A stretch of DNA of 42,299 bases. It comes from Microgenomates group bacterium (GTDB lineage: Bacteria > Patescibacteriota > Microgenomatia > UBA12405). Every line of letters starts with the position of its first letter. Positions within the stretch are counted from its first letter, which is position 1. The DNA lies in contig JBAQNJ010000001.1 of assembly GCA_049303675.1 (NCBI GenBank), forward strand, positions 956,001 through 998,299. Reading direction: 5' to 3'. A program made the position numbers and the translations under genes. Positions 7,928 to 41,086 of this stretch are shown one piece after another. The notes below the pieces were generated by a model. That model did not search any database, was not told where the DNA came from, and was given only the letters and a program-made list of their open reading frames with translations.

Positions 7928-7962
7928 AATTTAAAATTTAAAATTTTAAATTTGAAATTATT
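7928..7962. repeat. AT-rich heptad array (AATTTNA x5)
   Basis: Reads aatttaa aatttaa aatttta aatttga aattatt. The 25-mer aatttaaaattttaaatttgaaatt (7935-7959) recurs exactly at 9850-9874. Confidence 0.85.
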
Positions 7963-9001: not shown

Positions 9002-9238
9002 TTTTCCTGCCTCAATCATTCCATTTAGGTCCATCAACATCTTTTTGACTTCTGCTTCGCTCATACCGTGCCCCATTGCCCCCATCCCAATTGTTTCCAT
9101 CTCCGCTGCAAAACAGCTGACACAATGAAATCCATAATCCTCAGTTAATATCTCCGCTACTGCCGGATATTTCTCCACCACCTCCGCTATCAATGTGTTT
9201 TCTGTAATATATTGTTTTGATTTACTTTTACTGTTCAC
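8993..9238 (-). CDS. DUF1858-type small redox/disulfide domain protein
   Basis: TLIAEVVEKYPAVAEILTEDYGFHCVSCFAAEMETIG resembles the hybrid-cluster-associated DUF1858 family (from memory). The start is GTG, inside a heptad array. Confidence 0.6.
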   Translation of the reverse strand: MNSKSKSKQYITENTLIAEVVEKYPAVAEILTEDYGFHCVSCFAAEMETIGMGAMGHGMSEAEVKKMLMDLNGMIEAGKSK

Positions 9239-9263
9239 TGTTCACTGTTAACTGTTAACTGTT
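9230..9263. repeat. Tandem heptad array, ACTGTT(C/A) x5
   Basis: Reads actgttc actgttc actgtta actgtta actgtt. It spans the start codon and upstream region of the DUF1858 gene. Confidence 0.9.
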
Positions 9264-9653
9264 TTATATTTCTTCTAGTCTTATCAGTTTCATTTCTCTT
9301 ACAAAACTATCCTCAACCCTATTCCATATTTTTTTAAGCTCACAGTTGGCCACTCGACTGCACTCTTCATCACCGAGACACTTGACCATCCGCTTGTTTT
9401 CTCCCAAAGCTGCCATCAAATCATACAAATTTTTCTTCTGCCAACCTTCTACCAATTCATATCCTCCACTTTTCCCCTCGCGGCTAGTCACTATCCCCGC
9501 TCCTTTTAGTTTTCCGGCCAACTGTCCCAAAAATCTATAAGGCAATCTCAGCTTCGCAGCCACACTAGTCAGAGACACTGAACTTTGCCTATTTTTGGCC
9601 AAAAAAGCTATCAATATTATGCTATATTCTACTTTCTTAGGGATGGTTATCAT
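9264..9653 (-). CDS. Rrf2-family transcriptional regulator (IscR/SufR-like)
   Basis: Shows the N-terminal wHTH pattern (KVEYSIILIAFLAKN...SLTSVAAKLRLPYRFLGQLAGKLKGAGIVTSREGKSGGYEL) and C-terminal Cys residues. Confidence 0.85.
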   Translation of the reverse strand: MITIPKKVEYSIILIAFLAKNRQSSVSLTSVAAKLRLPYRFLGQLAGKLKGAGIVTSREGKSGGYELVEGWQKKNLYDLMAALGENKRMVKCLGDEECSRVANCELKKIWNRVEDSFVREMKLIRLEEI

Positions 9654-9849: not shown

Positions 9850-9884
9850 AATTTAAAATTTTAAATTTGAAATTTATAATCAAT
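9850..9884. repeat. AT-rich heptad array (AATTTNA family)
   Basis: Reads aatttaa aatttta aatttga aatttat aatcaat. It shares an exact 25-mer with 7935-7959. Confidence 0.85.
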
Positions 9885-9946
9885 TTTTAATGTTCTAATT
9901 TTAAAATTTAATCATTTTGAATTGATTAAAAATTAAAAATTGTGAA

Positions 9947-11092
9947 TTAAAAATTATTCTCAATTTCACTCCACACCCTCTCCAACCCCCCTCTATTATT
10001 CTTTGCCTCTGCTGCTATTGTTGTCTTAAATTTATTTTTATATTTCTCTGGGTTCTCCACAAACTTAAGGAAAAATCTGGCCGCCGAATTTCCCTTTTCC
10101 CTTACCCAGCCCAATTTCTTTTTCTTAATTATTTCGATATTACCGTCCTCTTGTCCCCCAATATGGGTAATCGCCACAAAAGGTTTACCAATGGCCACCA
10201 CATCAAATAAAAAATTGGGGCCGGCCTTGCCCATGACAATATCACTTATAGATAAAATTTTCGCCATATTGTCTATCCACCCCAAATTGATAATTTGTAC
10301 TAAACTATCTCTTTTTAGTGTCTTGATTAACATCTTGTATTGGTCAATCGTGTTTTTTAATAAGGTATCAGTTCCTGTATTAAAAATAATGGCCACTTTT
10401 TTCTTCACCAAGAGTAGCGAGGGTAATAATTTTAATATCGAGTTTGTCCCTAGGCTTCCCCCACCAATAAACACCACCGGCCTCTCATCCCCAATGCCCA
10501 ATTCACTTTTAACTGTTAACTGATCACTGTTCACTGTTAACTGTTTTTTGTACATCTCTTCCCTCACCCACCACCCAGTTTTAACTAGTCTTTTCCGCTC
10601 TATTTTATATTTTAGCCCCTCTTTCACTCCCACTTCATCATAGACAAAATTTACATCCGCCTCAGGTACAAAAGTAATTGGATTAATTGTCCATGGATCC
10701 GCCACCACTGTCATCAATTTGTACCTATACCCACCAGTTTTTCGTAGAGCTATCAATCCGTGTGACAGAAAAAAATATGATGAGACAATTACTTCTGGAT
10801 TCATAGTTTTGACTACTTTTTCTAGATATTTGGTACCACTCTGATCCAGCACATCAAAAAACAGTTTTCGCAACGCCTCTACTTCCATCAATTTGTGATA
10901 AAAACGGTTGCCACTAGGCAAATAGCGATACATCAGGGTGTATATTTCATTAACTACCGACAAGGGCATCTTCACCTCCACATATTCCACGTTAACACTT
11001 TTCTGTTGGCCCAAATATCCGTAAATCGCTCTGGCAATCGCCCGATGCCCCCACGGCATATTATCTGTAAGTACCAAAACTTTCTTTTTCAC
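9947..11092 (-). CDS. Glycosyltransferase, MGDG-synthase/GT28-like
   Basis: The N-terminus KVLVLTDNMPWGHRAIARAI and the C-terminal GGSLG...GKAGPN pattern are typical of diacylglycerol glycosyltransferases (from memory). Confidence 0.75.
   Translation of the reverse strand: MKKKVLVLTDNMPWGHRAIARAIYGYLGQQKSVNVEYVEVKMPLSVVNEIYTLMYRYLPSGNRFYHKLMEVEALRKLFFDVLDQSGTKYLEKVVKTMNPEVIVSSYFFLSHGLIALRKTGGYRYKLMTVVADPWTINPITFVPEADVNFVYDEVGVKEGLKYKIERKRLVKTGWWVREEMYKKQLTVNSDQLTVKSELGIGDERPVVFIGGGSLGTNSILKLLPSLLLVKKKVAIIFNTGTDTLLKNTIDQYKMLIKTLKRDSLVQIINLGWIDNMAKILSISDIVMGKAGPNFLFDVVAIGKPFVAITHIGGQEDGNIEIIKKKKLGWVREKGNSAARFFLKFVENPEKYKNKFKTTIAAEAKNNRGGLERVWSEIENNF
10511..10545. repeat. Tandem heptad array, (A/C)ACTGTT x5, in frame in the glycosyltransferase
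   Basis: Reads aactgtt aactgat cactgtt cactgtt aactgtt. On the minus coding strand it encodes QLTVNSDQLTV. Confidence 0.9.
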
Positions 11093-11114: not shown

Positions 11115-11393
11115 CTATGGCCGTAATGAAACAAAATCAGCAGTATCAATTATGCTCACTACTGCCTCTGCCCCCCGCAAACTACCTAGTGCAATCGTGT
11201 TATAAGTTACCGAAGAACTATCCACACCCTCCACCACTACATCACCATCTACCATTCCTACATATTGACTAGTTTTGCCCCCTTTATCCAAAAAACCTTT
11301 TAAGATGGCCAAATTATCAGGTATGTATTCTTCTTGTGTCGTCACAAACGTATTATAACAACAATTTTCAGTAGTTGGTACACTACCTAGCAT
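11115..11393 (-). CDS. Hypothetical protein (weak call)
   Basis: A 92-aa ORF that overlaps the HNH gene end by 11 nt. No motif recognised. Confidence 0.3.
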   Translation of the reverse strand: MLGSVPTTENCCYNTFVTTQEEYIPDNLAILKGFLDKGGKTSQYVGMVDGDVVVEGVDSSSVTYNTIALGSLRGAEAVVSIIDTADFVSLRP

Positions 11394-11799
11394 TTCTATT
11401 TTTCCTACCTTTACCCTTATTTGAATTTTTATATGTCGTAGTCAAACTGTGACAATTAGGGCATAGCACTCTCAAATTTTCTAAAGCATTATTCATATGG
11501 TTCCCATCAATATGATCAATTTCCAATGGTACCAAGCCAGTAGATCGATTGATTATCCCCCATCCACATAGGCTACATTTGTTATTATTTTTTTCAATAA
11601 AATATCTTCTAATAAATGGCTTTAATACTCCATTCGTATTCAGTGGATAAACTTTCCCTTCAAGCCACGATGAAATATTTTGTTTTCTCGTATATTCATA
11701 TTGACACTTCAACGAACAGAATATTCCAAAACTTGAGTAGTGGGGGCGAAATAATATTTTACAGTTCTTACAACAATATTCATCGTTTCTTCTTGACAT
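11383..11799 (-). CDS. HNH endonuclease
   Basis: Contains LEIDHIDGNHMNNALENLRVLCPNCH (the H-N-H motif with Cys pairs). It is divergent from the tRNA-Thr locus. Confidence 0.85.
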   Translation of the reverse strand: MSRRNDEYCCKNCKILFRPHYSSFGIFCSLKCQYEYTRKQNISSWLEGKVYPLNTNGVLKPFIRRYFIEKNNNKCSLCGWGIINRSTGLVPLEIDHIDGNHMNNALENLRVLCPNCHSLTTTYKNSNKGKGRKNRNAR

Positions 11800-12472: not shown

Positions 12473-13261
12473 TTACTCCTTTATCAAACTCATAATTTTA
12501 TCGACTACCACCTCCCCCCCCACCTCTTCCCCTACTGCCACAAAATCGGCATTTAAGTGCTTGGGGTCAGTACTGACATCAATTCCTGCCACCGCTGTCA
12601 TATTCTCATCATTGATTCCATTGCCCACCGTCATTACATTCTTCATTTGCAGCCCCAGTTTTTCCACCAACTTTTGTAGCCCAGTTGCCTTATTGATTCC
12701 CTGTAGCCCAATATCGTAAGCCTCCTCGTTCCACCAACAATACAATTCATTCTCTGGATCATATTTTTTGACAATCTGCTCAACCTCTGCCACCGCCTGT
12801 TTACAATGCAAAGTTATCAAATACTCTTTTGGTTCAAAACCCAAAACTCGCGAATCACTCAATCTCCCCAACTCTTGCCTAATTTTTTCAATTTTGTCTT
12901 TTTGTTTTATACTTAATACATAATTCGTAATACTTGATACATCTATCTGTAAAAACATCCCTATCTCTGCCTGTAAACTATCAACTCTGTCTCCATAAGC
13001 ATTCATCAAATAACTCATCGATCGACCGCTACTAATCGTTATATGAAATCTTTTTCTCAACACTTGTAATTTTTCTAAAAAATCAATTTGCGGTGGGTAA
13101 CTCTCCAGTACCATCTGTCCATTTTCAAAAATAAATTCCGTCCCCTTCTTTTTACTCACCCCATCCCCATCAAAACAAATCACCTTGATATCGGCCAAAT
13201 TTTCCACAGTCAATTCACTTATGGGCAAATTGAGGTTTGTCTTCATAATCAATTCTAGCAA
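12473..13261 (-). CDS. HAD-superfamily (Cof-type, IIB) phosphatase
   Basis: Contains motif I FDGDGV and motif IV GNGINDENM. Confidence 0.8.
   Translation of the reverse strand: MLELIMKTNLNLPISELTVENLADIKVICFDGDGVSKKKGTEFIFENGQMVLESYPPQIDFLEKLQVLRKRFHITISSGRSMSYLMNAYGDRVDSLQAEIGMFLQIDVSSITNYVLSIKQKDKIEKIRQELGRLSDSRVLGFEPKEYLITLHCKQAVAEVEQIVKKYDPENELYCWWNEEAYDIGLQGINKATGLQKLVEKLGLQMKNVMTVGNGINDENMTAVAGIDVSTDPKHLNADFVAVGEEVGGEVVVDKIMSLIKE
12908..12943. repeat. Heptad array mixing AATACTT and TAATTCG units
   Basis: Reads tatactt aatacat aattcgt aatactt gatacatc, inside the HAD gene. Confidence 0.8.
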
Positions 13262-13996: not shown

Positions 13997-15150
13997 GCCT
14001 CAATTAAACCATTAATTAATTCATCTATATCACTTTTATCATTATAAATCCCCAGACTAATCCTAGTAGTTCCATAAGGCAATCCCAATCTTGTATGAAG
14101 TGGCATGGTGCAATGATGCCCAGCTCTAACCGCCACATTATATTTTCTCCCCAAAATGTCAGCCATATCGTGTGCTCCAATATTATCTACAGCAATGGCT
14201 ACCACACCCAATCTATTTTTATCATATCCGCTCCCAACTATTTTGATCCATTTTAATTCGGCCAATTTTTCAAACAAGTATTTGGTCACTTCAGCTTCGT
14301 GTCTCTGGATCTCATCAAATCCAATTTTATTTATAAAATCAATCGCCGCCCCTAGTCCAATCACCTGCGCAATCGGCGGTGTCCCCGCTTCAAACCTCTC
14401 TGGACCATCGGCCCAAGTCGAATTCTCTTCAAAGACCTCTTTTATCATTCCTCCACCATATCTTGCCGGACTCATTTCTGATTGCCTGTTGACCCTTGCG
14501 TAAAGCACCCCCACCCCAGTCGGTCCATACATTTTATGCCCCGAAAAGGCATAAAAATCACAATCTAGATCTGCCACATTTACCGGTATATGTGGTATTG
14601 CTTGGGCCCCATCCACTACTACTATAATATCCGGATTAATTTCTCTAGCTTTTTTTATTGTTTCTTTTATATTATTTACTACTCCCAACACATTTGAAAC
14701 ATGGGTAATTGCCAATATTCTAGTTTTATTCGTAATTTGCCTGTGCCCATTTGGGTATAATTCGTAATTCGTAATTTTTCCCATCTGTTGCCAGACTACA
14801 AAATTTGAGTGATGCGCCTCAATCTCCACCACCACCTCGTCTTCTTTTTTCAAACCCAGCCCTCTGGCCACCAAATTAATACTGTCAGTCGTGCCACTAG
14901 TAAAAATAATTTCCGCCTCATGTTTTGCCCCAATAAATTTGGCCACTTTATTTCTAACTTCTTCATATTCCCTCGTCGCTCGCTCTGACATTGGGTACAA
15001 TCCTCGATGAATATTAGCGCTGTAACTGGTGTAATATTCCATCATCTTATCCAGTACCACTTGTGGCTTGAGCGCCGTCGCCCCACTATCCAAATAATGC
15101 AGCGTTGGGTTATTTTTAAATATTGGAAATAAATTTTTATAATTTTTCAT
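13972..15150 (-). CDS. sufS: Cysteine desulfurase (class V aminotransferase)
   Basis: Contains the PLP lysine motif SGHKMYGPTGVG and the active-site loop RAGHHCTMP. Confidence 0.9.
   Translation of the reverse strand: MKNYKNLFPIFKNNPTLHYLDSGATALKPQVVLDKMMEYYTSYSANIHRGLYPMSERATREYEEVRNKVAKFIGAKHEAEIIFTSGTTDSINLVARGLGLKKEDEVVVEIEAHHSNFVVWQQMGKITNYELYPNGHRQITNKTRILAITHVSNVLGVVNNIKETIKKAREINPDIIVVVDGAQAIPHIPVNVADLDCDFYAFSGHKMYGPTGVGVLYARVNRQSEMSPARYGGGMIKEVFEENSTWADGPERFEAGTPPIAQVIGLGAAIDFINKIGFDEIQRHEAEVTKYLFEKLAELKWIKIVGSGYDKNRLGVVAIAVDNIGAHDMADILGRKYNVAVRAGHHCTMPLHTRLGLPYGTTRISLGIYNDKSDIDELINGLIEAWTIFTKN
14756..14778. repeat. Tandem heptad array TAATTCG x3, in frame in sufS
   Basis: Reads taattcg taattcg taatttt, with a further ttattcgtaattt at 14727-14738. 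The encoded protein segment is ITNYELYPNGHRQITNK. Confidence 0.85.
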
Positions 15151-15656: not shown

Positions 15657-17074
15657 CCCACGCTCCCTTCCATTTGTAAATTAATTAATCTATTTAATTC
15701 AAGGCTATATTCCATCGGCAATTCCTTGACAATTGGTTCGATAAATCCATTGACAATCATTGCCTCTGCTTCATGCTCTTCAAATCCCCGACTCATCAAA
15801 TAAAACAATTGTTCCTCCCCTATTTTGCTCACCGTTGCCTCATGTTCCAGAGTCACCTCACTCTCATCAATTTTGTTCACCGGATAGGTATCACTGCGAC
15901 TATCTTTGTCCAAAATCAGCGCATCACAAACCACCTTACTTCTGGCATTTTTGGCTCCAGTCACCATCTGGACTAGTCCGCGATAACTGGCTCTACCACC
16001 ACGAAGGCTAATAGATTTACTGATAATTCGACTAGTAGTATCCGGCGCCAAATGAATACATTTGCCACCTGCGTCTTGATGTTGTCCTTTGCCGGCTACC
16101 GCTACCGACAATATCTCCCCATGAGCTCGAGCCCCTGCCAACACCACTGAGGGGTATTTCATGGTAATTTTCGATCCCAAGTTACCATCAATCCATTCCA
16201 TAATACCATCTTCTTCCACCCGAGCTCTTTTGGTCACCAGATTGTATACATTTGTCGACCAGTTTTGAATGGTAGTGTAGCGACACCGAGCATTTTTCTT
16301 CACAAAAATTTCTACTACTGCTGCGTGGAGAGAATCGGTGGTATAGATTGGTGCGGTGCAACCCTCTACGTAATGGACATACGCCCCCTCATCCACAATT
16401 ATCAGTGTCCGCTCAAATTGTCCCATATTGGCCGAGTTAATTCGAAAATAAGCCTGCAATGGCAAGTCAACTTTTACCCCTTTGGGAATATAAATAAACG
16501 ACCCGCCCGACCACACCGCCGTATTTAGGGCCGCAAACTTATTGTCCCCCATCGGAATTAGTTTTCCAAAATATTCAAAGACCAATTCTGGATATTTTTC
16601 TAGAGCCTCATCCATCCCACAAAAAATTATTCCTTGATCCGACAATCTTTTTAATAAACTCCCGTAAATCACTTCTGATTCATATTGCGCCTTCACTCCA
16701 CCCAAATATTGTTTTTCTGCCTCGGGTATACCCAACCGGTCATAAGTTGTCTTGATATCCGCTGGCACATCCTTCCATTCTTTTTCTGTGCCCGCACTTG
16801 GCTTTATATAATAAAAAATATCCTCAAAATTGATGGTGGATAGGTCCGCCCCCCATGATGGCATTTTCAGTTCCAAAAACTTCTCGTACGCCTTTAGTCG
16901 CAGTTCCATCATCCGTAATGGCTCTTTTTTCATTCCTGATATCATCGACACTACTTCTGGACTAAGTCCCTTTTTTGACTTAAACACATAATTTTCCGGC
17001 ATTGAGAATCCGTATTTGTATTCCCCATCCGGTTTCCATTCTTGCCCAGTCTGCTTCTTTGCAAATCTAGTCAT
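15653..17074 (-). CDS. sufB: Fe-S cluster assembly protein SufB
   Basis: Full-length SufB-like sequence, including [17 protein letters not shown]. Confidence 0.9.
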
Positions 17075-17834
17075 TATTATATCCCCCAGCTTCTATCTCT
17101 TGAGCTAATTTTGGTCCGCCTTCTCTGACTATTTGTCCCTCAGCCATAATTACCACCCTATCTGCCGCCAAATACTTTAGGATACGATTATAGTGAGTAA
17201 TTACCAACACCCCTATTTTTCGTTGTTTGGCCACCGCCGCCACTGTCCTCGCTATCTTTTGCAGGGCATCCACGTCCAGACCCGAATCAATTTCATCCAA
17301 AATAATATATTTAGGATTAAATACTAAAAGTTGCAATATTTCTAGTTTCTTTTTCTCCCCCCCCGAAAAACCATCGTTTAGACCTCTTTTAAGTAGTTCT
17401 GGGTTTAGTTCCAATAGTTTTGCCTGTTTTTCTATCCATTCTCTAAATTCAAGTAATTTTGTCCCTATCTTAGGATTTCTTTTTTTATAAAGTTGATACA
17501 AAAAACTATTTACCGTCAGTCCGGCTATTGCCACCGGATATTGGTTGGCCAAAAATAATCCCTCATTTGCCCTCTCGTCTGGACTCATTTCATCCATTCC
17601 CACCCCATCAAGTTCTATTATGTTGCGTTTTTTATTTTTTTTATCTGTTAACTGTTCACTGTTCACTGTTAACTGATACTTAGGATGTCCCGATAGTGCA
17701 AAGGCTAGTGTTGATTTCCCCGATCCATTTGGTCCCATAATCGCCACTACTTCTCCTGCTTTGACCTCTAAGTCAATACCCTTAAGTATTTCTTTTTGGC
17801 CGACTTTTACCCTCAATTTATTTATTTTCAACAT
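17067..17834 (-). CDS. sufC: Fe-S cluster assembly ATPase SufC
   Basis: Contains Walker [10 protein letters not shown], the ABC signature FSGGEKKK and Walker [11 protein letters not shown]. Confidence 0.9.
17643..17677. repeat. Tandem heptad array, (A/C)ACTGTT x5, in frame in sufC
   Basis: Reads atctgtt aactgtt cactgtt cactgtt aactgat and encodes [11 protein letters not shown]. Confidence 0.9.
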
Positions 17835-18134: not shown

Positions 18135-18156
18135 TATTTCGTAATTCGTAATTAAT
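18135..18156. repeat. Heptad array, TAATTCG family
   Basis: Reads tatttcg taattcg taattaa, just upstream of tRNA-Ser. Confidence 0.7.
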
Positions 18157-19690
18157 AATTTTTAATTGATTTTGGAGAGGTGCTCCGAATGGTAAGGAAC
18201 TTGTTTTGAAAACAAGCGCCAGCAATGGCATGCAGGTTCGACTCCTGTCCTCTCCGCCAACCAGAAAATGGGGGCGAATTTAGCAAAATTCGCCAGCCAA
18301 TATTGCCCTGAAATCCGAAATTTTTATCTTTTAAAACGAAGTTCGAGCCGATATTTTTTAAGAAACTTCTAAATTCATAAGGATTGTTTTTCTTTATTAA
18401 TATTTTGGCAAGGCTTGCGGATAAAATCATTTCTCTCATTTGTTCGAGCCAATTATTTCCTTTTGATTCAAAATCTTTTAAATCCTGCTCGATACCAGTT
18501 TGTTGATTGATAAATAAATTTTTCTTGGTGAGGTATTGTTGATTATCAATCAAATTATCGAGTCGGAAATTTAGCAGGTCATCAAGTTTTCGGTTAATTT
18601 CTGATTTTTGAGTTACCAGATTTTGAATCAATGGTTGGGATTGGATATTTGCTTGATTGGTTTCTTGGTCTAACTCTACCAACATCTTTTTTACCCAACT
18701 TTTCGGCAAAGAAACTTTTTGAATCTTGGTTTTGATTTGGTCTATCAATTCCTCCTCTCGTAAATATTTTTCGGGACAATTACTTTTCTTTTTAGTACAG
18801 CGATAATAGTTATGTCCTTTTTGGGTTTCGGCGGTTATCAGGCAACCACACCCGCCACATCTCATTAGTCCCGAAAAAATAAACTCGTGTTTTCGTTGCC
18901 GATGTTTTTTGCCTCGGTTATTCATCACCTCTGCCACCAAATCAAAAAGTTTCTTAGAAATAATTGGCTCATGAACTCCTTTATACAATTCACCATTAAA
19001 TCGAATCAGTCCGTAATAAATTGGGTTTTGTAACATAAATTGGACACGGGATTCTGATAAAGTTTTATCTTGATAACTTTTAAGGTTTGACTTAGCGAAA
19101 AATCCGGCGATACCTTTGAGGGTGCAATCGCCAGTCGAGTACATTTCAAATGCCTTTTTGATTAGTTTTGCTTTGGGAATATCAATATCAATTCCTTTGG
19201 TTTTACGATTATTGACATAACCAATCGGAGCAAAAGACGGCCATAAACCATTCCTTAGTTTTTGTCTGATTCCTCGCCGGATATTTTCGCTTAAATTATC
19301 AACATAATATTTACTCTGACCAAAGGCAATATTTAACATAAACTTGCCTTGTGGGGTTGAGTCAAACCAAAAAGTAGGAAACTTTAAATCAAGAATTTTT
19401 CCCGTGTCCAATAAATAAATGATTTTCCCGCCATCAATTGAGTTTCTGGCCAATCTATCAGGGTGCCAAGCCAAAATGCCCTGTGCTTCGCCTTTTTCCA
19501 TTCTCTCAATCATTTGATTAAAAACAATCCTTCCGGGTTTCTTGGCAGTTTTTGCCTCGGTGAACGAGGCAACGATTTCAATTTTTTGAATTGTGGCAAA
19601 TTCTTTTAGCTCAGCAATCTGATCACCAATACTTTTTATTTGTCTTTCTTCACTGTCGGTTGATTTTCTAGCGTATAAAAAGTATTTCAT
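18152..19690 (-). CDS. Large serine recombinase (integrase); the last ~60 codons read through the att arm and antisense tRNA-Ser
   Basis: Has the N-terminal resolvase catalytic motif YARKSTDSEERQ, a recombinase domain, and the zinc ribbon CGGCGCLITAETQKGHNYYRCTKKKSNCPEKY. Confidence 0.9.
   Translation of the reverse strand: MKYFLYARKSTDSEERQIKSIGDQIAELKEFATIQKIEIVASFTEAKTAKKPGRIVFNQMIERMEKGEAQGILAWHPDRLARNSIDGGKIIYLLDTGKILDLKFPTFWFDSTPQGKFMLNIAFGQSKYYVDNLSENIRRGIRQKLRNGLWPSFAPIGYVNNRKTKGIDIDIPKAKLIKKAFEMYSTGDCTLKGIAGFFAKSNLKSYQDKTLSESRVQFMLQNPIYYGLIRFNGELYKGVHEPIISKKLFDLVAEVMNNRGKKHRQRKHEFIFSGLMRCGGCGCLITAETQKGHNYYRCTKKKSNCPEKYLREEELIDQIKTKIQKVSLPKSWVKKMLVELDQETNQANIQSQPLIQNLVTQKSEINRKLDDLLNFRLDNLIDNQQYLTKKNLFINQQTGIEQDLKDFESKGNNWLEQMREMILSASLAKILIKKNNPYEFRSFLKNIGSNFVLKDKNFGFQGNIGWRILLNSPPFSGWRRGQESNLHAIAGACFQNKFLTIRSTSPKSIKNY
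18174..18259 (+). tRNA. tRNA-Ser (anticodon UGA), long variable arm, encoded CCA
   Basis: Acceptor ggagagg/cctctcc, anticodon arm cttgt-tttgaaa-acaag, variable arm cgccagcaatggcat, T arm gcagg-ttcgact-cctgt, then g-cca. The D stem is imperfect. Confidence 0.85.
18254..18337 (+). repeat. attL-side arm: 84-bp perfect inverted-repeat partner of 19715-19798
   Basis: I compared the reverse complement base by base and found it identical over 84 nt. It contains the internal hairpin ggcgaatt/aattcgcc. Confidence 0.95.
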
Positions 19691-19696
19691 TTTTTT

Positions 19697-19948
19697 AAGC
19701 CCGCATTTGGCCCAGTTTTAAAAGATAAAAATTTCGGATTTCAGGGCAATATTGGCTGGCGAATTTTGCTAAATTCGCCCCCATTTTCTGGTTGGCGGTG
19801 TGCATTCGAAAATATTCGAACAGATTTTCAAAATTTATAATGACGGGCGGAACTCGCCCCCCTCCGATTTCCGCCCGATGGAAAGTGAGGATTTCAATAA
19901 AACTGCCAAAATATCGGCTCGAACTTCTTTTGGGCCAAATGCGGGCTT
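19697..19948. repeat. 18-bp inverted repeat (aagcccgcatttggccca / tgggccaaatgcgggctt) enclosing the internal att-like site
   Basis: The arms lie at 19697-19714 and 19931-19948. The right arm is followed by a T-run, and the left arm is preceded by a T-run on the plus strand (an A-run on the minus strand). Confidence 0.9.
19715..19899 (-). repeat. Internal inverted attP-like composite site (arm shared with attL + core + arm shared with attR)
   Basis: 19715-19798 is the reverse complement of 18254-18337. 19792-19899 is the reverse complement of 24851-24958. The two share the core ttggcgg (19792-19798). Confidence 0.9.
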
Positions 19949-20033
19949 TTGAAAAAATGATAAAAAATACTGACATAATGCTAACTATAGTATGTAGAAC
20001 TAAAGTTAGCAAGTGGTTATAATAATCCGCATA

Positions 20034-20255
20034 ATGAAAAAACAAATATTAGTAAAATTCGGACAAAGTGTTAGACAAGAAAGAGAGAAACAGGGGTTGT
20101 CACAGGAGGAGTTGGCTAACAAGGCCAAAGTACACCGAACTTACATTGGAATGATTGAAAGGGCTGAGAAAAATATTACTCTGGCTAATATCGAAAAAAT
20201 CGCTAATGCTTTAAAAATGAAGATTAGTAACCTACTAAAACAAGATGAAGATTAG
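20034..20255 (+). CDS. XRE-family helix-turn-helix transcriptional regulator
   Basis: GLSQEELANKAKVHRTYIGMIERAEKNITLANIEKIANAL is a typical Cro/C1 HTH. The ORF track starts at 20013, but ATG 20034 (MKKQILV) is more likely, with TATAAT at 20018-20023. Confidence 0.85.
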   Translation: MKKQILVKFGQSVRQEREKQGLSQEELANKAKVHRTYIGMIERAEKNITLANIEKIANALKMKISNLLKQDED

Positions 20256-21690
20256 CCAATTATTTAAGTTAGACAAAACCCAGTTTGAACTTGATTTTGT
20301 TGATGTGGATATAGAACATGATAATTGGTTGTTTCTCGACCCTTTTTTTATTTCGACACGAAATGATCCCTGGTCGGTAGATGCAACGAGAGTTATTAAA
20401 TCTTTTTTTCAGTACATCATAGATTTGACAAAATCCGGAAATGTTAACCAAGCTAAGGGCTACTTTACTCATTTGAACGAACCAAACGAAACCTGCTTGG
20501 GAATGTCAAAAGGTAACCCCAGGGGGAATGGTGTTGGAAATGATAACGCTGAAAAGATTTTTGATAGCTTGTTGACTAGTAAAGCTATGGAGACCGGATT
20601 AGTAGAAAACCTAGAAGATTCTGCAATTTTTATTGACGGAATTGCTAGAGATAAGGTATCTGACGTCACAACAAATATAATCAGACGTAATTTAATCGAA
20701 TATACAAAAAATCAATGTGATCTATGGGGAATACCAATTACAAATAATTGTCCGTCTGGGTTCTATTGGAACCAAAATTCTAAAAAGTGGGATCAGTCCT
20801 ATACAGAAAGGTTGGTAATTAACAATAAATTGTTTCTACTTGTACCCAAGAATTCGGTTACATTTTATAAGGATTATATCGACCAAAAATACTATCAACA
20901 TTATGTTCTAAATTTTCTTCAAGATGAACACATGAAGAACAATAGTCCTTTAGTTCAGCATAGGAAGCTAAAAGACGGAACAATCCATAGTTTTGTTACC
21001 AAGAAAGACATTAAAGAAAAAGATTCACCTTTTTCCAAGGACCTCTTAAGAGAATTTACACGTAAACATCCTGATATATTCGCGAAATTTAGAAATGAAA
21101 AAAAGGGATCAGTCAAACCTCTAAGCAATGAGCAGCTAACTAACATAAGTCTTAATGAAGTCGTCGAATATTTAGTTAAGTGTCTAGATGAGATACGACC
21201 CGGAGGTGACGAAGCCTCCAAATATCATAGATTAATGATTGGAATCTTAGAACTAATTTTTTATCCACATCTAACAAACCCAATAAAGGAAAGAGAGATA
21301 AACGAAGGAAGAAAACGAATCGATATTGCAATGGATAATGCCGCAACAAACGGTTTTTTTCATCAACTACATGATATTCACAAGATATCTTCCAGGTTTG
21401 TTTATATCGAATGTAAAAACTATTCGGATGATCCAGAAAATCCTGAATTAGATCAGCTATCGGGAAGATTTTCCGTAAACACTAGCAATTTTGGCATATT
21501 AGCTTGCAGGGTGGTAAATAATAAAAAACTTATGACTCAAAGGTGTATTGATCTCTATAAACAAAAAAAGGAGTTGATCATCGTATTTGACGATGGGGAA
21601 ATAAAAGAAATGTTGAACCACTTACTAACAGATTCATCCTATATAGATTCCTGTCTTTGCAACAAAAGAAGGGAAACAGAACTTGCATGA
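20245..21690 (+). CDS. 481-aa protein with a C-terminal PD-(D/E)xK-like nuclease motif; N-terminal region unknown
   Basis: GRKRIDIAMD ... FVYIECKNY fits the D...(D/E)xK pattern of the restriction-endonuclease fold. It overlaps the XRE gene by 11 nt. No methyltransferase is nearby. Confidence 0.55.
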   Translation: MKISQLFKLDKTQFELDFVDVDIEHDNWLFLDPFFISTRNDPWSVDATRVIKSFFQYIIDLTKSGNVNQAKGYFTHLNEPNETCLGMSKGNPRGNGVGNDNAEKIFDSLLTSKAMETGLVENLEDSAIFIDGIARDKVSDVTTNIIRRNLIEYTKNQCDLWGIPITNNCPSGFYWNQNSKKWDQSYTERLVINNKLFLLVPKNSVTFYKDYIDQKYYQHYVLNFLQDEHMKNNSPLVQHRKLKDGTIHSFVTKKDIKEKDSPFSKDLLREFTRKHPDIFAKFRNEKKGSVKPLSNEQLTNISLNEVVEYLVKCLDEIRPGGDEASKYHRLMIGILELIFYPHLTNPIKEREINEGRKRIDIAMDNAATNGFFHQLHDIHKISSRFVYIECKNYSDDPENPELDQLSGRFSVNTSNFGILACRVVNNKKLMTQRCIDLYKQKKELIIVFDDGEIKEMLNHLLTDSSYIDSCLCNKRRETELA

Positions 21691-21755
21691 TTTTTATTGC
21701 AGCCTTTCATAGTCCACGGTGATTAAATATTATATTCGTGACATAATACGTAAGA

Positions 21756-22760
21756 ATGAAATATTCAAATAGACTTGGCGAAATCAGTAACGAGCAACTA
21801 CAAAAGGCTTTAGATAAATTAAAACTTGGGAAATTTGTAAAAGCAGAACCGATAGGATTTGGTAATTTTGGCCAAAATCTTTTTCTAACGAGTGATAAGG
21901 GTGAGTTTGTATTGAGAGGTAAGCCCCATTATCCGTGGCAATTCCCAAGTGAACAATTTATGGCCAATCTGTTTCATGAAAACACTAAAGTTCCGGTACC
22001 TTGGCCTTATTTAGTTGATGGGGATATGGGTATTTTTGGTTGGAGTTATTGCATTATGCCAAGACTTCAAGGATTGCAACTTAAAGATAAGGCTGTTTAC
22101 GATCAATTGCCTTTGAAAGATAAGCTTGAAGTAGCCCAAGCTTTGGGGGAAAACTTAGCCGAAATGCAAAAACTTACCTGGGAATTCAGTGGTAAGTATG
22201 ATTTGGAATCAAGAACAATAAAACCTTTAGAAAAACCATGGGATCAATGGGTTATTGATTTCATTGACGACTTGGTATCTAAAAGCGCGACTTACAGCGA
22301 CAAAACTCCCAAGAAGGATGTGGAATGGATAAATCAGTTAATTGAGACTGGGAAGGAAGCACTACAAGCCCCATTTACGCCAACCTTTGTGATGCATGAT
22401 TATCAAATTAGTAATATGGTGGTTGATAAGGTAAATGGTAAGTGGCAAGTAACTGGACTTTTTGACTTAATGGAAAATTATTTTGGCGATGGTGAATCAG
22501 ACCTAAGTCGGGTATATGTGGCCTACGCTGAGGAAAATGAAACTTTAGCCTATGCATTTTTAAATTCTTATCTATCTAAAATGAAAGTAAGACAAGGATT
22601 TGAGAAGCGATGGCCAATTTACATGATTCTTGATCGAATCGTGGTGTGGGAATGGGCTCAAAGAAACGGGAAATGTTGGTGGAAACAGGAGTACACATTT
22701 AGAGAATGGGTAGAAGGCAATACTTTACTTGACGTTAAGAGATTAATAATCAAGAAATAA
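21756..22760 (+). CDS. Phosphotransferase (APH/CotS-like kinase fold) family protein
   Basis: FVMHDYQISNMVV (catalytic loop-like) and GLFDLMENYFGDGESDLSR (Mg-binding D plus the GDxxxDL motif) resemble aminoglycoside/choline kinase-type enzymes. Confidence 0.7.
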   Translation: MKYSNRLGEISNEQLQKALDKLKLGKFVKAEPIGFGNFGQNLFLTSDKGEFVLRGKPHYPWQFPSEQFMANLFHENTKVPVPWPYLVDGDMGIFGWSYCIMPRLQGLQLKDKAVYDQLPLKDKLEVAQALGENLAEMQKLTWEFSGKYDLESRTIKPLEKPWDQWVIDFIDDLVSKSATYSDKTPKKDVEWINQLIETGKEALQAPFTPTFVMHDYQISNMVVDKVNGKWQVTGLFDLMENYFGDGESDLSRVYVAYAEENETLAYAFLNSYLSKMKVRQGFEKRWPIYMILDRIVVWEWAQRNGKCWWKQEYTFREWVEGNTLLDVKRLIIKK

Positions 22761-22764
22761 ATAT

Positions 22765-23712
22765 ATGGATCAACAAATATTTATGAATAATATTAGCCCA
22801 AAACAAATAATTACTGATTTTTCCAATAAAAGAAAAAACCCTGTGTTGTTTTTAGATATTAAGGAAGTCGGTAAAAATGTTGCATTATTAGTATCCGAAC
22901 TGTTAAAAGGTAAATTTTTTGATTCTCTCGATGTAGTCTTGCAAACCCCAGGTGGAAATATAGATGCTGCTTTTTTAATTGCAAAATTAATTAGAAAAAG
23001 CACTAAAAACCTCACAATTTTTGTGCCTTTGTATGCTAAAAGCGCAGGAACATTGATCTGTCTGTCGGCTGACCATCTTTTGTTAACTGATATATCAGAA
23101 CTAGGCCCGCTAGACACACAAATATTTGAACAACAAGATGGCGGGCAATCGCAATATGTATCCGCTCTAAACGGGTTTAAAGCCTTGGAACAGGTGCAAC
23201 TGCATTCAATTGAAACTCTCGATATTACAACGAAGCTCTTACTTTCAAAAAGTTCAATGAAGATTTGTGAGGCTGTAGAACTGGCTTCCGATTTCTGCGG
23301 AAAAACTAGTGGAAAACTGTATCAGAAACTTAATCCGGCAAAAATTGGTGAGTATGCAAGGGCGTTAGAAATTGGTGAATCGTATGGAGTCACGATACTT
23401 AATAAGTATTGTAAATGGGATAGACAAAAAGCAGAAATGACTGTAAAAATTCTGGTAAAGCAGTATCCATCACACGAGTATGTAATTGATCTTGAGGAAT
23501 TAACTGACTTGGGAATACCCGCAGAACTTATTTGTGACGAACTTGTTGATTCCGTAAAAATATTAAGGAATTTGATGTTACAATCTGCCGAGACACAAGT
23601 AGAGCTAATTGAGCCAACAACGAATCAAAATACTACTCTACCAAATACTACCCCACCTGTCTCTATTAGTGGTAATATTAATATAGATGATAATGAAAGA
23701 TTGGCGAGATAA
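22765..23712 (+). CDS. ClpP/SDH-fold (S49-like) serine protease family protein
   Basis: LQTPGGNIDAAFLIAKLIR...VPLYAKSAGTLICLSADHLLL...GPLDTQ resembles the SDH family Clp-fold serine proteinases (from memory). Confidence 0.65.
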   Translation: MDQQIFMNNISPKQIITDFSNKRKNPVLFLDIKEVGKNVALLVSELLKGKFFDSLDVVLQTPGGNIDAAFLIAKLIRKSTKNLTIFVPLYAKSAGTLICLSADHLLLTDISELGPLDTQIFEQQDGGQSQYVSALNGFKALEQVQLHSIETLDITTKLLLSKSSMKICEAVELASDFCGKTSGKLYQKLNPAKIGEYARALEIGESYGVTILNKYCKWDRQKAEMTVKILVKQYPSHEYVIDLEELTDLGIPAELICDELVDSVKILRNLMLQSAETQVELIEPTTNQNTTLPNTTPPVSISGNINIDDNERLAR

Positions 23713-23934
23713 AAACTTAACAAAAGTAAGAAACAGTAAGACAGATTCGGTGAGAGATGTTTTTAAGAGAGAAATACTAAATACCAGAATAGTTATTTCG
23801 GGAATTCTCAGAGAGCAAGACGATAAATATCGTCAAGAAAATATTGTGAATGGTAGTATTAAGTCGCCACTAAGTTGTATTTGAATTTGTCATTATAAAA
23901 TTAGGAACAAAGTTTAATAGGGTATAATTTATCT

Positions 23935-24183
23935 ATGACTTCCAAAAAAATAGCAACAATTTTATTAGTCGTTGGTATAGTTGGGGCTTTGAATAACTCA
24001 ACAGCCTTATCAAATGGAGGAATCGGGGCTTTATCTTTATTTATCGGCTCAATTTTTGGTGCAGTATTGGGTTCAGATATAGGTCGATTAATTACAATGT
24101 TAGTTGATATTATTTGTAGAGCCTCACTTATTTTCTTTATTTTAGCCGCCATTTACTATTACAAATCGAAAAAAGAAATCTAG
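23935..24183 (+). CDS. Small membrane protein (2-3 TM segments)
   Basis: An 82-aa hydrophobic ORF. I prefer it over the antisense ORF 23901-24152 because it is co-oriented with the rest of the island. Confidence 0.45.
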   Translation: MTSKKIATILLVVGIVGALNNSTALSNGGIGALSLFIGSIFGAVLGSDIGRLITMLVDIICRASLIFFILAAIYYYKSKKEI

Positions 24184-24236
24184 TTAATACTTCAATTTTT
24201 GAAAACGAATCGTAATAATAGAGGTATAATCGCATT

Positions 24237-24779
24237 GTGAATGCTAATTTAAACACAAAGGTTAAACCCCTATTTAATTGCTTAAAAGGCTATTATGAAA
24301 CAGCACCTGAATCAGGATACTGTAGACATCCACCAATTTGGGAAAACTACAATAAGACAATTGATGAACTAAATAATATAACTTCCGTCAATTACGACAG
24401 ATTTAAAATAACTAATATAAGAGATGATGCAGGTGATCAAGTTGTAGATGTAAATGAATACAGACAAAAATTATTAGGTTTGGTCAAATATCTCGAGGGT
24501 GAATATGATTTTTTTGAGGAAACAAAAAGCAGCTCGGGTGTAATCTTTAATAATAATCAGACTCAAAACTTACATTTAACCATTGTTTTAGAGTTTCAAA
24601 CTTTGGTCGATAAAAAATTATATGGCTCAAAACTCGATGAACAAGAAAAGGGTTATTTGGAGAAAATTAAAGAGCTATTGCCTGGAATAAAATCAATAAC
24701 AGAAATAGTCAATTTAATTCTTTCCTTGGGTAAGACAATGGGATTGACCTTAGACCAGATAACAAAATTGTTTACATAA
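24237..24779 (+). CDS. Hypothetical protein (GTG start)
   Basis: A 180-aa ORF, the last cargo gene. No motif recognised. Confidence 0.45.
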   Translation: MNANLNTKVKPLFNCLKGYYETAPESGYCRHPPIWENYNKTIDELNNITSVNYDRFKITNIRDDAGDQVVDVNEYRQKLLGLVKYLEGEYDFFEETKSSSGVIFNNNQTQNLHLTIVLEFQTLVDKKLYGSKLDEQEKGYLEKIKELLPGIKSITEIVNLILSLGKTMGLTLDQITKLFT

Positions 24780-24850
24780 AAGCACGAGAAGTAATATTTA
24801 TTTTTTGTTATTACATAAAAAAATTTGCCACAATTAAAAAATTGAAATCG

Positions 24851-24958
24851 TATTGAAATCCTCACTTTCCATCGGGCGGAAATCGGAGGGGGGCGAGTTC
24901 CGCCCGTCATTATAAATTTTGAAAATCTGTTCGAATATTTTCGAATGCACACCGCCAA
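24851..24958 (+). repeat. attR-side arm: 108-bp perfect inverted-repeat partner of 19792-19899
   Basis: I compared the reverse complement base by base and found it identical. It contains the hairpin gggcggaa/ttccgccc and the ttcgaa-atattt-tcgaa repeats. Confidence 0.95.
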
Positions 24959-24959
24959 A

Positions 24960-25355
24960 ATGAAAAACAATCTCCCCATCCGTGCAGTCAAAGCTGTTAT
25001 CCGAAACAAGAAAGGCGAGATATTATTGCTTCAGAGAAATCCCCAAATATCTCTCCAAGATAACTGGGACCTTCCTGGAGGGCTAGTCGAAACTGGAGAA
25101 AACTTCAAGAATGCTCTCATCCGCGAAGTAATGGAAGAGTTGAATCTAACAATCAACATCACCAAACAAGCAGGCAAGTGGCATTTTATCCGATTCAAAG
25201 ACAAGCAATTAGTACATGTCCAAAACTACCACTGTACTGTTAACAGTGGCGATATTCAGCTCAGTGAAGAACATCACGACTATAAATGGGTAAACCCTTC
25301 TGACATTCGAAAGTATTTAGTAAAAGACGACAGCTTTTATACTGCTATAAACTAG
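24960..25355 (+). CDS. NUDIX hydrolase
   Basis: Contains the Nudix box GGLVETGENFKNALIREVMEELNL. The ORF track start at 24945 lies inside the att arm, so ATG 24960 (MKNNLPIRAV) is preferred. Confidence 0.85.
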   Translation: MKNNLPIRAVKAVIRNKKGEILLLQRNPQISLQDNWDLPGGLVETGENFKNALIREVMEELNLTINITKQAGKWHFIRFKDKQLVHVQNYHCTVNSGDIQLSEEHHDYKWVNPSDIRKYLVKDDSFYTAIN

Positions 25356-26320: not shown

Positions 26321-26353
26321 TAACTGTCGACTGTAAACTGTTATCTGTTAACT
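26321..26353. repeat. Degenerate heptad array of the ACTGT family (intergenic)
   Basis: Reads taactgt cgactgt aaactgt tatctgt taact, upstream of hpf. Confidence 0.7.
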
Positions 26354-26359
26354 ATAATA

Positions 26360-26665
26360 ATGAATATTCAAATCATCGGCGACAACTTTAATGTTTCTGA
26401 TAACACTCGTCACTTAGTTGAGGAAAAAATTGGCTCTCATCTCGATAAACTGCTCACCAAGTTTGATCCAGAATTTCATTCTGCCCTAATTCGCATTCAA
26501 AAAGATAAATTTGATAATTATCTCGTCAACTTGGACATGAATTTACCTGGCAAAGAACACATTTATGCCGATACTACCCACAAAATACTCGAATCAGCCT
26601 TAATTGACCTCTCACAAGAGGCTGAGGTTCAAATCCAAAAATACAAAGAAAAACTTCATTCATGA
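26360..26665 (+). CDS. hpf: Ribosome hibernation promoting factor (short HPF/RaiA)
   Basis: MNIQIIGDNFNVSDNTRHLVEEKIGSHLDKL is a typical S30AE-family N-terminus. Confidence 0.8.
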   Translation: MNIQIIGDNFNVSDNTRHLVEEKIGSHLDKLLTKFDPEFHSALIRIQKDKFDNYLVNLDMNLPGKEHIYADTTHKILESALIDLSQEAEVQIQKYKEKLHS

Positions 26666-28068: not shown

Positions 28069-28281
28069 ATGCCCACAGTTACCGATATATTAGTTATACA
28101 CAGCGACTTAACCCAACAAGTTGAAAAGGCGGCGATCGATTTATCCGGCTGGGCTCAGATGATCGGTGAAGGTAGTGATGTACCCAGTTCACTCACAGAG
28201 ACTCTCGATTCCAAAAGACAACACTTAAACGAATTAACTATTCTCCTCCAACAATTTGAAGCTAGACCAGTCCAACTCTAA
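28069..28281 (+). CDS. Hypothetical acidic 70-aa protein
   Basis: The ATG lies 3 nt after the rpmG stop. Its end overlaps the radical SAM ORF by 26 nt. Confidence 0.45.
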   Translation: MPTVTDILVIHSDLTQQVEKAAIDLSGWAQMIGEGSDVPSSLTETLDSKRQHLNELTILLQQFEARPVQL

Positions 28282-29047
28282 GAGTCTTGAAAACATTTAT
28301 ATTTCCCCTCTCGAACTCTGCAACCTCAGTTGTCTCTATTGTTATACCCATAAAACCAAAAGTATTTTAACCAACAGCCAGATTTTAGATTTTGTCAAAA
28401 ATTATAACTCGGAACTCATAACTCGTAACTCTAAACTCAAGTCAATCATATTTTGTGGCGGTGAAGTCTTTACTCTTCCAAAATTTACAAATCTAGTTAA
28501 TCAACTACTCTCTCAAAACATTTTTATTTCCATTATTACCAACGGTACTATCGACAAACTGGACGAGATAAGTGAACCCCACAACTGTCAATTAATTGTC
28601 TCCTTTGACGGACCGGAACAGATCCATGATCAAAATCGAGGCGAGGGCAACTTTGCCAAATCAAAAGCATTTGTGGAGCACGCTCTCTCCCTCGGCTTTC
28701 CTGTCGAAATTTTTTATTTAGTCACCAAAGACTCATACCCACACTTTAAGACTTTCCAACTTTTCGACTTACATATCACCTATCTCACCGACCGTTTAGG
28801 CTCATTAACCAGAGAACAGGTGTCGGAAATTCGCCAAAACTACCCCTGCTATCCTCCCAAAGATTTTGGTTGCAATATTTTTTCCCTCCAATCTGATGGC
28901 AAATTTTACGGTTGCTGTGAATCCACTCGTTCCATTGGCTCTTTAACTGATCCTCTCGACAAAATTCTCGCAAAATACACTGATATAATTACCCAGCATC
29001 CCCTATGCTCTGACCCAAATTATTGGTGTGACCTAAAACCCCAATAG
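28256..29047 (+). CDS. Radical SAM protein with a Cys-rich (SPASM/twitch-like) C-terminus
   Basis: Has the CNLSCLYC (CX3CX2C) motif near the N-terminus and C-terminal cysteines (GCN...GCCES...HPLCSDPNYWC). TTG is the only plausible start upstream of the motif. Confidence 0.8.
   Translation: MKLDQSNSKSLENIYISPLELCNLSCLYCYTHKTKSILTNSQILDFVKNYNSELITRNSKLKSIIFCGGEVFTLPKFTNLVNQLLSQNIFISIITNGTIDKLDEISEPHNCQLIVSFDGPEQIHDQNRGEGNFAKSKAFVEHALSLGFPVEIFYLVTKDSYPHFKTFQLFDLHITYLTDRLGSLTREQVSEIRQNYPCYPPKDFGCNIFSLQSDGKFYGCCESTRSIGSLTDPLDKILAKYTDIITQHPLCSDPNYWCDLKPQ
28404..28438. repeat. Heptad array, TAACTCG family, in frame in the radical SAM gene
   Basis: Reads taactcg gaactca taactcg taactct aaactc and encodes NSELITRNSKL. 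Confidence 0.8.
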
Positions 29048-41044: not shown

Positions 41045-41086
41045 TTCCTCTTGATTTCCTCCTCAAAACATCTATATTCAAGATAC

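Follow-up and report, generated by a model that had tools for sequence, protein, structure and literature searches.

How does a repeat with a unit of seven nucleotides (nt) come to lie in frame within an essential gene? The question is raised by sufC of a Microgenomates bacterium, which lies in a 42,299-nt stretch of contig JBAQNJ010000001.1 (hereafter, the window) and contains about five tandem copies of the unit ACTGTT(A/C). The original prediction, made from the letters of the window, read this array and three others like it as a dispersed DNA-level element that is tolerated in surface loops. Our analysis, which covered the window and the syntenic loci of its relatives, finds that reading essentially right and also incomplete: the arrays belong to a known class of heptanucleotide repeat; the peptide that they encode is forced by the unit; and not all of them are recent lineage-specific insertions. 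The explanation that we favour, and consider probable, is that the arrays are heptanucleotide simple sequence repeats (SSRs) of the STRR/TAACTGA type, which would arise at the DNA level through slippage and short-patch copying and would then be subject to selection.

ACTGTT(A/C) arrays in sufC and elsewhere in the window

Tandem Repeats Finder reports period-7 arrays of this unit at four sites: 9230-9263 (4.9 copies, 96% matches), 10505-10545 (5.9 copies, 85% matches), 17641-17675 (5.0 copies, 89% matches) and, in degenerate form, 26322-26357 (5.1 copies, 72% matches). The letters of the sufC array, 17641-17678 on the plus strand, are tTATCTGTTAACTGTTCACTGTTCACTGTTAACTGATAc. The dimer ACTGTTMACTGTTM, with at most one mismatch allowed, has 15 matches in the window, all on the plus strand, against 0.05 expected, and none of 100 shuffles reached 15. 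The arrays are genuine tandem repeats, far above chance, and the four sites and the single plus orientation that had been predicted for them are borne out, although AAC-T-GTT differs from its reverse complement in the centre base only, so that this base alone sets the orientation of the unit. Of the four arrays, two lie inside genes, again as predicted, and the other two are start-proximal. The array at 9230-9263, reversed relative to the mRNA, spans a gene start: the GTG of a DUF1858 gene (9236-9238) is inside the array, where the public gene call likewise places it, and the TAA stop of an Rrf2-family gene (9264-9266) is directly beside it. The degenerate array, forward relative to the mRNA, is intergenic and ends 2 nt short of the ATG at 26360. 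The two in-gene arrays are those of SufC and of a glycosyltransferase.

SufC of the window matches the SufC proteins of T. thermophilus and E. coli from end to end; over residues 1-253, the E values are 3e-61 for 2D2E and 1.3e-50 for the E. coli protein. The only gap, of 13 residues, lies opposite the array segment. The protein had been predicted to be about a dozen residues longer in this stretch; it exceeds the solved structures by 13 residues and its insert-free relatives (242-243 residues) by 14. Our SufC alignment (A1) shows no variation in the Walker A, Q, signature, Walker B and H motifs. The segment from HPKY to the next strand has 4-5 residues (e.g., EVSG) in the majority of 113 close homologues and 18 in the SufC of the window; in about 30 of the 113, from many parts of the tree, this turn holds an insert of 10-43 residues. 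These inserts are mostly unrelated to one another, and many have a 7-residue period (EIKSPKSKSLKVESG, IITNSKLRITNKKNENRG, EISNFQFPISNKK); one relative (P0007) carries the array peptide of the window in its insert. The DNA at the insert site consists of AATTACG units in one Shapirobacteria locus (L001) and of AGTCAAA units in another (L003), and a second insert hot spot lies directly after YKKRN. The sequence comparison indicates that the SufC insert is derived and that a turn of 4-5 residues is the basal state.

In an AlphaFold2 model of SufC (mean pLDDT 83), the 10-residue blocks over residues 51-70 score 74 and 55, and the flanking blocks score above 90; the insert would lie at a β-hairpin turn, a predicted tolerant site. 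From the general architecture of ABC ATPases, we take this hairpin to belong to the antiparallel β subdomain that follows the Walker A helix, at a distance from the interface of the Q-loop with the helical domain. A separate observation concerns the same two hot spots, where SufC homologues P0003, P0031, P0024, P0036 and P0023 (A1), from other Shapirobacteria, have inserts of the form IASS..K(A/T)PRND(V/A), which look like translations of another, probably palindromic, dispersed repeat family.

The SufC and glycosyltransferase arrays both encode a peptide of the QLTVNS(E/D)QLT type (the glycosyltransferase reads YKKQLTVNSDQLTVKSELG across its array and EMYKKQLTVNSDQLTVKSELG over a longer stretch), and both translations agree with those first given. 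That the two arrays share a frame and a peptide is correct as it was stated, but it is uninformative, a mathematical necessity of the 7-nt unit: 7 and 3 have no common factor, so that the same seven codons come up whatever the frame, and (TAACAGT)n is read in every frame as the cycle TAA CAG TTA ACA GTT AAC AGT, i.e., a stop followed by QLTVNS; therefore, a common frame is not evidence of anything. The unit has stops in all frames of both strands. Its TAA is changed to GAA in SufC and to GAT in the glycosyltransferase, and units at the phase that would yield TGA retain their T. Over the whole window, perfect consensus copies would bring one or more in-frame stops into 9 of the 12 coding arrays; each of the nine carries the very substitutions that abolish its stop, the actual arrays have no stops, and the non-coding arrays do hold them. 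This stop-breaking pattern is the signature of a DNA-level origin followed by selection on the reading frame, and QLTVNS(E/D)QLT is the only stop-free reading of the ACTGTT(A/C) unit. No occurrence of the peptide QLTVNS or its rotations was found in the searchable literature.

SufC also has a native motif, GLTVNSF, which is conserved in the lineage and contains the same LTVNS (residues 106-110, 17520-17534). We considered this motif as the source of the array and rejected it: its codons, CTG ACG GTA AAT AGT, are not heptad-like, and the likeness is apparently a coincidence.

Period-7 repeats in the window and its relatives

The 42 kb contain about 21 period-7 arrays (about 25 rows of this period in Tandem Repeats Finder), of which ACTGTT(A/C) makes up a single family; the other units include AGTTTTG, ATACTTA (six arrays), TTCTAGT/TTCCAGT (three), AATTTAA, TAATTCG and ATAACTC. 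Our own census of the window returned eight strong arrays of period 7, none of any other period from 4 to 14, and none of any period in Markov shuffles, so that period-7 arrays are commoner here than in shuffled sequence (8 vs. 0). The idea of a special element did not survive this comparison: ACTGTTM (M, A or C) is one family in an apparently genome-wide heptad-repeat phenomenon of known class. The best named relatives of SufC and of the glycosyltransferase belong to Candidatus Shapirobacteria (candidate phyla radiation; Patescibacteria, Microgenomates), and the syntenic loci of other Shapirobacteria (L001, L003 and L126-L128) show the same period-7 pattern.

Units are shared between arrays in 36 pairs, vs. 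8.4 expected for random 7-mers of the window and a maximum of 25 in 2000 draws. The two members of a unit-sharing pair have the same orientation in 24 cases and opposite orientations in eight, five of which stem from one array; orientation is constant on the chromosome while the host genes occupy either strand, and single units outside arrays have no orientation bias. Arrays are under-represented inside long open reading frames (ORFs), where 12 of the 21 lie against a coding fraction of 83% (p = 0.005), yet these are the majority. The enrichment of period 7 only, the chromosomal orientation and the removal of stops from 9 of the 12 coding arrays support the predicted origin at the level of DNA rather than of protein.

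Whole arrays also recur. The SufC and glycosyltransferase arrays of the window have the same order of unit variants, and sufC of L001 holds an identical imperfect 30-nt array, ATTACGAATTCAAAATTACGAATTACGAAT, at both hot spots (10162-10192 and 10356-10388, 190 nt apart), each translating to ITNSKLRITN. The exact 31-mer CAGTTAACAGTGAACAGTGAACAGTTAACAG is present in 12 metagenome contigs of 35-62% GC and without GC skew; in four of the 12 it is in frame, with Pfam domains on both sides, in a DHH (RecJ-like) protein, a DUF2142/PMT membrane protein and two GT4 glycosyltransferases, in the latter again at the interdomain linker. Three successive ACTGTTM units occur in at least 120 stretches of reference genomes; among the matches listed, over half are from filamentous cyanobacteria, the rest include Bacteroidota, Acidobacteriota and Chloroflexota, and there is no Shapirobacteria record. 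The number of ORF-embedded arrays in other bacteria (24 of 172 in open frames of at least 150 codons) is unreliable, because ACTGTTC repeats are open in all frames (SLFTVHC), and many of these ORFs are possibly spurious; for in-gene copies in other bacteria we rely only on the four cases with a Pfam-flanked array. The excess of unit-sharing pairs, the twin array of L001 and the 31-mer in unrelated genes are evidence for the dispersal of the arrays. Because slippage by one unit shifts the frame, an in-frame array in an essential gene would have to appear and change in blocks, and copying of pre-formed arrays would therefore be favoured over stepwise local growth. In one of the 12 contigs (L133, Ga0268298_10022282, ~1567-1640, from a 53%-GC organism), an array of another heptad family, TCTCCCA/TCTCTCA (peptide SPNLSVSQSPRLPS), comes directly after the DUF2142/PMT array; one loop can thus contain adjoining arrays of different families.

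The original prediction took the arrays to be lineage-specific insertions, which holds for SufC, where most relatives have the 4-5-residue turn, and holds only in part for the glycosyltransferase. There, the array occupies the linker that precedes the C-terminal Rossmann domain and nets five residues compared with L001, the remainder overlying older sequence (QLTVNSDQLTVKSELG vs. -----IDRDKVRSRLG); about 13 of the closest homologues share the longer segment, with varied 7-residue-periodic peptides; and L126, whose protein is 58% identical, has an orthologous array, CAGTTATCAGTTAAGAGTTATCAGTTAACAGTTAA, made of TCAGTTA units. The array between the Rrf2 and DUF1858 genes is likewise shared, with L127. 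Where arrays occur in the genes for the HAD hydrolase, the radical-SAM enzyme and SufS, they take the place of other sequence and leave the length the same or nearly so, and orthologues of these genes have their own heptad arrays, of different units, in the same places: the HAD-hydrolase array brings no length change relative to an orthologue that bears an AACTTCT array there, and the radical-SAM orthologue of L003 has a TGATTTA array at the corresponding place. Orthologue alignment, proposed for SufC, SufS and TopA, gives a derived insert in the first and a near length-neutral array in the second; no TopA gene was identified among the ORFs of the window. Tolerance of the arrays in protein loops, as predicted, is seen in the β-hairpin turn of SufC (pLDDT 55-74) and in the interdomain linker of the glycosyltransferase.

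Table 1. Period-7 arrays of the window and the genes that hold or adjoin them (coordinates are positions in the window; aa, amino acids)
Feature	Position	Strand	Remarks
ACTGTT(A/C) array, ~5 units, in sufC codons 53-65	17641-17678	+	with adjoining A-rich tract, a 13-14-aa insert
sufC, Fe-S cluster assembly ATPase, 255 aa, intact	17067-17834	-	Walker A, Q-loop, ABC signature, Walker B and H-loop present
ACTGTT(A/C) array, ~6 units, in glycosyltransferase codons 183-196 (QLTVNSDQLTVKS), interdomain linker	10505-10545	+	
Glycosyltransferase, MGDG-synthase family, PF06925 + PF04101, 381 aa	9947-11092	-	
ACTGTT(A/C) array, 5 units, whole spacer from Rrf2 stop to DUF1858 start	9230-9263	+	holds GTG 9236-9238
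DUF1858 gene, 81 aa	8993-9238	-	start codon within array
Rrf2-family regulator gene, 129 aa	9264-9653	-	stop abuts array
Degenerate ACTGT(T/A)N array, ~5 units, intergenic	26322-26357	+	2 nt upstream of ATG of S30AE/hibernation-factor gene (26360-26665)
ATACTTA array, in frame in Wzy_C/TPR membrane-protein gene (4273-6141)	4837-4865	+	
Further in-frame arrays, Wzy_C/TPR gene	4995-5020, 5071-5102, 5364-5395, 5537-5564		
ATACTTA array, in frame in HAD-hydrolase gene (12473-13261, minus strand)	12909-12940	+	
TAATTCG array, 2.7 units, in frame in sufS	14758-14776	+	peptide ITNYEL
ATAACTC array, in frame in radical-SAM gene (28256-29047)	28404-28439	+	
TTCTAGT array, in frame	36197-36227	+	peptide LLVSSFQFLVS; family of 5537-5564 and 40920-50
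TTCCAGT array, in frame in gene for 898-aa membrane protein	40920-40950	+	
AGTTTTG array, 4.7 units, perfect, intergenic	505-537	+	
AATTTAA array, intergenic, downstream of fmt	7928-7959	+	similar: 855-884, 9850-9880, 9925-9956
Two ATACTTA-family arrays in opposite orientation	42076-42109 and 42119-42150		hairpin just after stop of ORF 41051-42091

Several further observations concern the genes and arrays of Table 1. The Wzy_C (O-antigen-ligase-like) membrane protein with C-terminal TPR repeats has five separate in-frame heptad arrays, whose peptides include ILNTYYLILNT, IPNTKYLIPNT and FLVSSFLFLVS. The inverted ATACTTA pair at 42076-42150, the first array of which overlaps the stop of its neighbouring ORF, folds into a hairpin (-21.7 kcal/mol, z = -3.95) with a U run after it, and looks like an intrinsic terminator made of heptad arrays. 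A small HNH-endonuclease-like ORF adjoins the glycosyltransferase gene both in the window (11383-11799) and in L126 (88-531).

The plus strand of the window is extremely C-rich, with a GC skew of -0.16 to -0.43 in 2-kb windows at any gene orientation, except at ~18-25 kb; in L001, L003 and L126-L128, the skew is +0.25 to +0.34 on the gene strand. The skew of the window matches the whole-chromosome strand disparity that was reported for the Microgenomates order UBA1400 and attributed to unidirectional replication (PMC7143001). The region 18152-25355 has a lower GC content (0.34-0.36) and reversed skew, and is missing from the syntenic loci L001 and L003. It encodes a large serine recombinase (Resolvase + Recombinase + Zn_ribbon_recom), whose ORF overlaps tRNA-Ser (18174-18259), along with HTH, DUF8370, APH-like kinase, SDH-protease/NfeD and NUDIX genes as cargo; it contains nested inverted repeats (18254-18337 with 19715-19798, 84 nt; 19792-19899 with 24851-24958, 108 nt) and is a probable integrated island.

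Origin of the arrays

Any account of these arrays has to accommodate what is observed: specificity for period 7, recurrence of families, orientation bias, stop-breaking, location in loops, reuse of the same loops, and identical arrays elsewhere. We propose that replication slippage in a 7-nt register would lengthen and shorten arrays, and that whole imperfect arrays would be copied between loci as short patches, a likely route being same-strand template switching or gene conversion, which would give rise to the single chromosomal orientation and to the genome-specific unit families. Selection would then set persistence: intergenic spacers would allow arrays, and arrays within genes would survive only in structurally tolerant loops and linkers, with a net length that is a multiple of three and with stop-breaking unit variants. 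Slippage, template-switch copying and the neutrality of the coding copies are the components of this scheme that we infer.

Some of our results weigh against it. Between the window and L126, no other 12-codon stretch of the glycosyltransferase gene is as well conserved as the array, which has 89% nucleotide identity vs. 64% overall, and 71% vs. 45% at third positions. Between the Rrf2 and DUF1858 genes, L127 has AGTAGTT AATAGTT AACAGTG AATAGTG AATAGT where the window has AACAGTT AACAGTT AACAGTG AACAGTG AACAGT: 29 of 34 nt are identical (p about 1e-6 against third-position identity), the T,T,G,G pattern is kept, and the GTG start is inside both. At the divergence of the window from L127, neutral junk should have decayed; the identity of both arrays reflects either constraint or re-seeding from the same family in both genomes. 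In addition, no donor-recipient copying event was caught, and the scheme does not explain the choice of 7 nt or the recurrence of the unit in distant phyla.

Constraint would be expected if the arrays were functional cis-elements, i.e., strand-oriented binding sites or Shine-Dalgarno-independent initiation or insulator sequences, whose coding copies are tolerated spill-over; by analogy with the proposal made for TAACTGA in Beggiatoaceae, the reader would be a factor that binds RNA or single-stranded DNA. The conserved variant pattern and start codon of the L127 junction and the well-conserved glycosyltransferase DNA fit this idea, as do the stops of the unit in all frames of both strands, its biased orientation, and the two arrays that abut starts (with a GTG inside 9230-9263 and an ATG 2 nt past 26322-26357); most TAACTGA sets likewise lie just upstream of starts (MacGregor 2015, PMC4679880). 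We nevertheless consider it rather unlikely: many unrelated unit families behave alike, the units at orthologous sites vary between species, the S30AE gene is not preceded by an array in L001 and L003, the two start-proximal arrays differ in orientation relative to the mRNA, and identity between members of a family is not proof of orthologous conservation. RNA structure was rejected as a rationale for the arrays; their folding z-scores range from 0.9 to -3.0, with sufC reaching -3 through GTTAAC pairing and the others not significant, and only weak stems were found. The window arrays also differ from MITE/REP-type miniature mobile elements, as the sequences read hold no terminal inverted repeats, target duplications or associated enzyme that would point to transposition.

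A purely local origin, in which slippage would have built each array independently out of a chance proto-repeat and nothing was copied from locus to locus, is improbable. The many different units, the species-specific units at orthologous variable loops and the polymerase-slippage proposal of Mrazek agree with it, but units recur four times more often than random 7-mers do, identical imperfect arrays occupy two sites of L001 sufC as well as unrelated genes across phyla, and steps of 7 nt would shift the frame of an essential gene, so that an in-frame array must come in blocks. We give very little weight to the view that QLTVNS(E/D)QLT has been selected at the protein level, as a motif with a function in SufC and the glycosyltransferase, even though the peptide occurs in these two proteins, in P0007 and in four metagenome proteins, and LTVNS is native to SufC: the 7-nt unit dictates the peptide, the same DNA is also found non-coding and with stops, relatives have unrelated peptides or nothing at these loops, model confidence across the insert is low, and the native LTVNS codons are not a heptad. 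Low-complexity repeats are error-prone and the source is metagenome-assembled, yet an assembly or sequencing artefact is hardly credible when an independent Logan assembly (L125) gives a 100% identical sufC, the reading frames are intact, and relatives from other samples carry arrays at the same sites.

Beyond slippage, copying and selection, which we still prefer, we see a slim chance that the arrays are not mutational debris but the product or target of a dedicated sequence-specific system common to Shapirobacteria, filamentous cyanobacteria, Beggiatoaceae and others. Such a system may comprise a factor that reads strand-oriented AAC-N-GTT arrays (for Shine-Dalgarno-independent starts or insulation, or for replication-strand marking where, as here, GC skew is extreme), or it may comprise an enzyme that writes pre-formed arrays into DNA. 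If true, it would account for the conservation of the junction and glycosyltransferase arrays (the flanking proteins are 58-60% identical), the uniform orientation and the 31-mer shared across phyla.

Known heptamer repeats and the meaning of the arrays

Heptanucleotide arrays have been known since 1990, when three families were described in Calothrix PCC 7601 (Mazel et al. 1990, as quoted in PMC4692102). Heptamers are the dominant long SSR in many prokaryotes, for which polymerase slippage was proposed (Mrazek 2007, as quoted in PMC4679880); GGGNATC arrays have been described in Xanthomonas and Nostoc; and the TAACTGA arrays described from Beggiatoaceae, Cyanobacteria and Bacteroidetes consist of 2-6 copies, bring a stop into every frame and occasionally lie within an ORF as reverse copies that read LSVISYQ (MacGregor 2015, PMC4679880). 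The window arrays share with the TAACTGA repeats the tandem 7-nt units, the stops in all frames, the sets beside starts, the scattered spread across phyla and a periodic 7-residue in-ORF peptide (compare LSVISYQ with QLSVKSYQLTV in P0123). The window consensus, TAACTGT, is one base off; TAACTGA units themselves occur at 10519-10525 and 17672-17678, and L126 uses TCAGTTA. However, the typical position, forward and a few nucleotides upstream of a start, fits one of the four arrays (26322-26357); the host, whose genome is ~1 Mb in size, belongs to the candidate phyla radiation; over half of the window arrays are in genes, some of them essential housekeeping genes, and in mid-domain rather than at protein ends; many unit families coexist here, whereas related heptamer repeats are rare in the Beggiatoaceae genome studied; and the window unit has stops on both strands, so that coding copies need variants.

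Cyanobacterial STRRs are similar in being dispersed tandem heptamers with several families per genome and no assigned function, and the genomes of Rivularia, Calothrix, Brasilonema, Scytonema and Anabaena are rich in ACTGTT(A/C) arrays. The STRR units are reportedly CCCCAGT, TTGGTCA and CAACAGT (STRR3); the window unit (T/G)AACAGT would be one base from the last, not identical. The arrays do not belong to STRR1-3, as both unit and host differ, the host being of another phylum and no heterocystous cyanobacterium; moreover, STRRs are described as mainly intergenic. As a heptanucleotide long SSR, by comparison, the arrays are typical: head-to-tail 7-nt copies in ~4-5 units, over-representation of period 7, many dispersed arrays in the window, under-representation in coding sequence and occasional inverted pairs. 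They differ from the GGGNATC and other long-SSR systems in that they are not G-rich, so no G-quadruplex is expected, and in that 7-nt repeats occur in genes, where the surveys, to the extent that they are quoted, found mostly units that are multiples of three. With phase-variable contingency loci they have in common a unit in an ORF that is not a multiple of three, in which a change of one unit would switch the frame. The hosts, though, include sufC, sufS, the HAD hydrolase and the radical-SAM gene, which have no surface, antigenic or restriction-modification function, although two other hosts, the glycosyltransferase and the Wzy-like protein, would fit; the window arrays are interrupted, which should damp slippage; and the array is identical in L125, the only second assembly with this sufC. 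No report of heptad arrays in the candidate phyla radiation was found in the literature searched. What is unusual here is the host phylum, the high in-gene share, the recurrent loop hot spots and the identity of a coding-compatible variant across phyla.

The genome is very small and dense with genes, and its GC skew is extreme; genes have to accommodate over half of the arrays, which makes the selective filter visible: loops only, stop-breaking variants and lengths in threes. The same protein loops are reused repeatedly across the lineage, conservation is higher in some arrays than in the surrounding genes, and an identical imperfect array recurs, with its peptide, in unrelated proteins of unrelated phyla. 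Such inserts inflate the apparent divergence of proteins in candidate-phyla-radiation genomes and mark structurally permissive sites, and such arrays can mislead gene callers at start codons.

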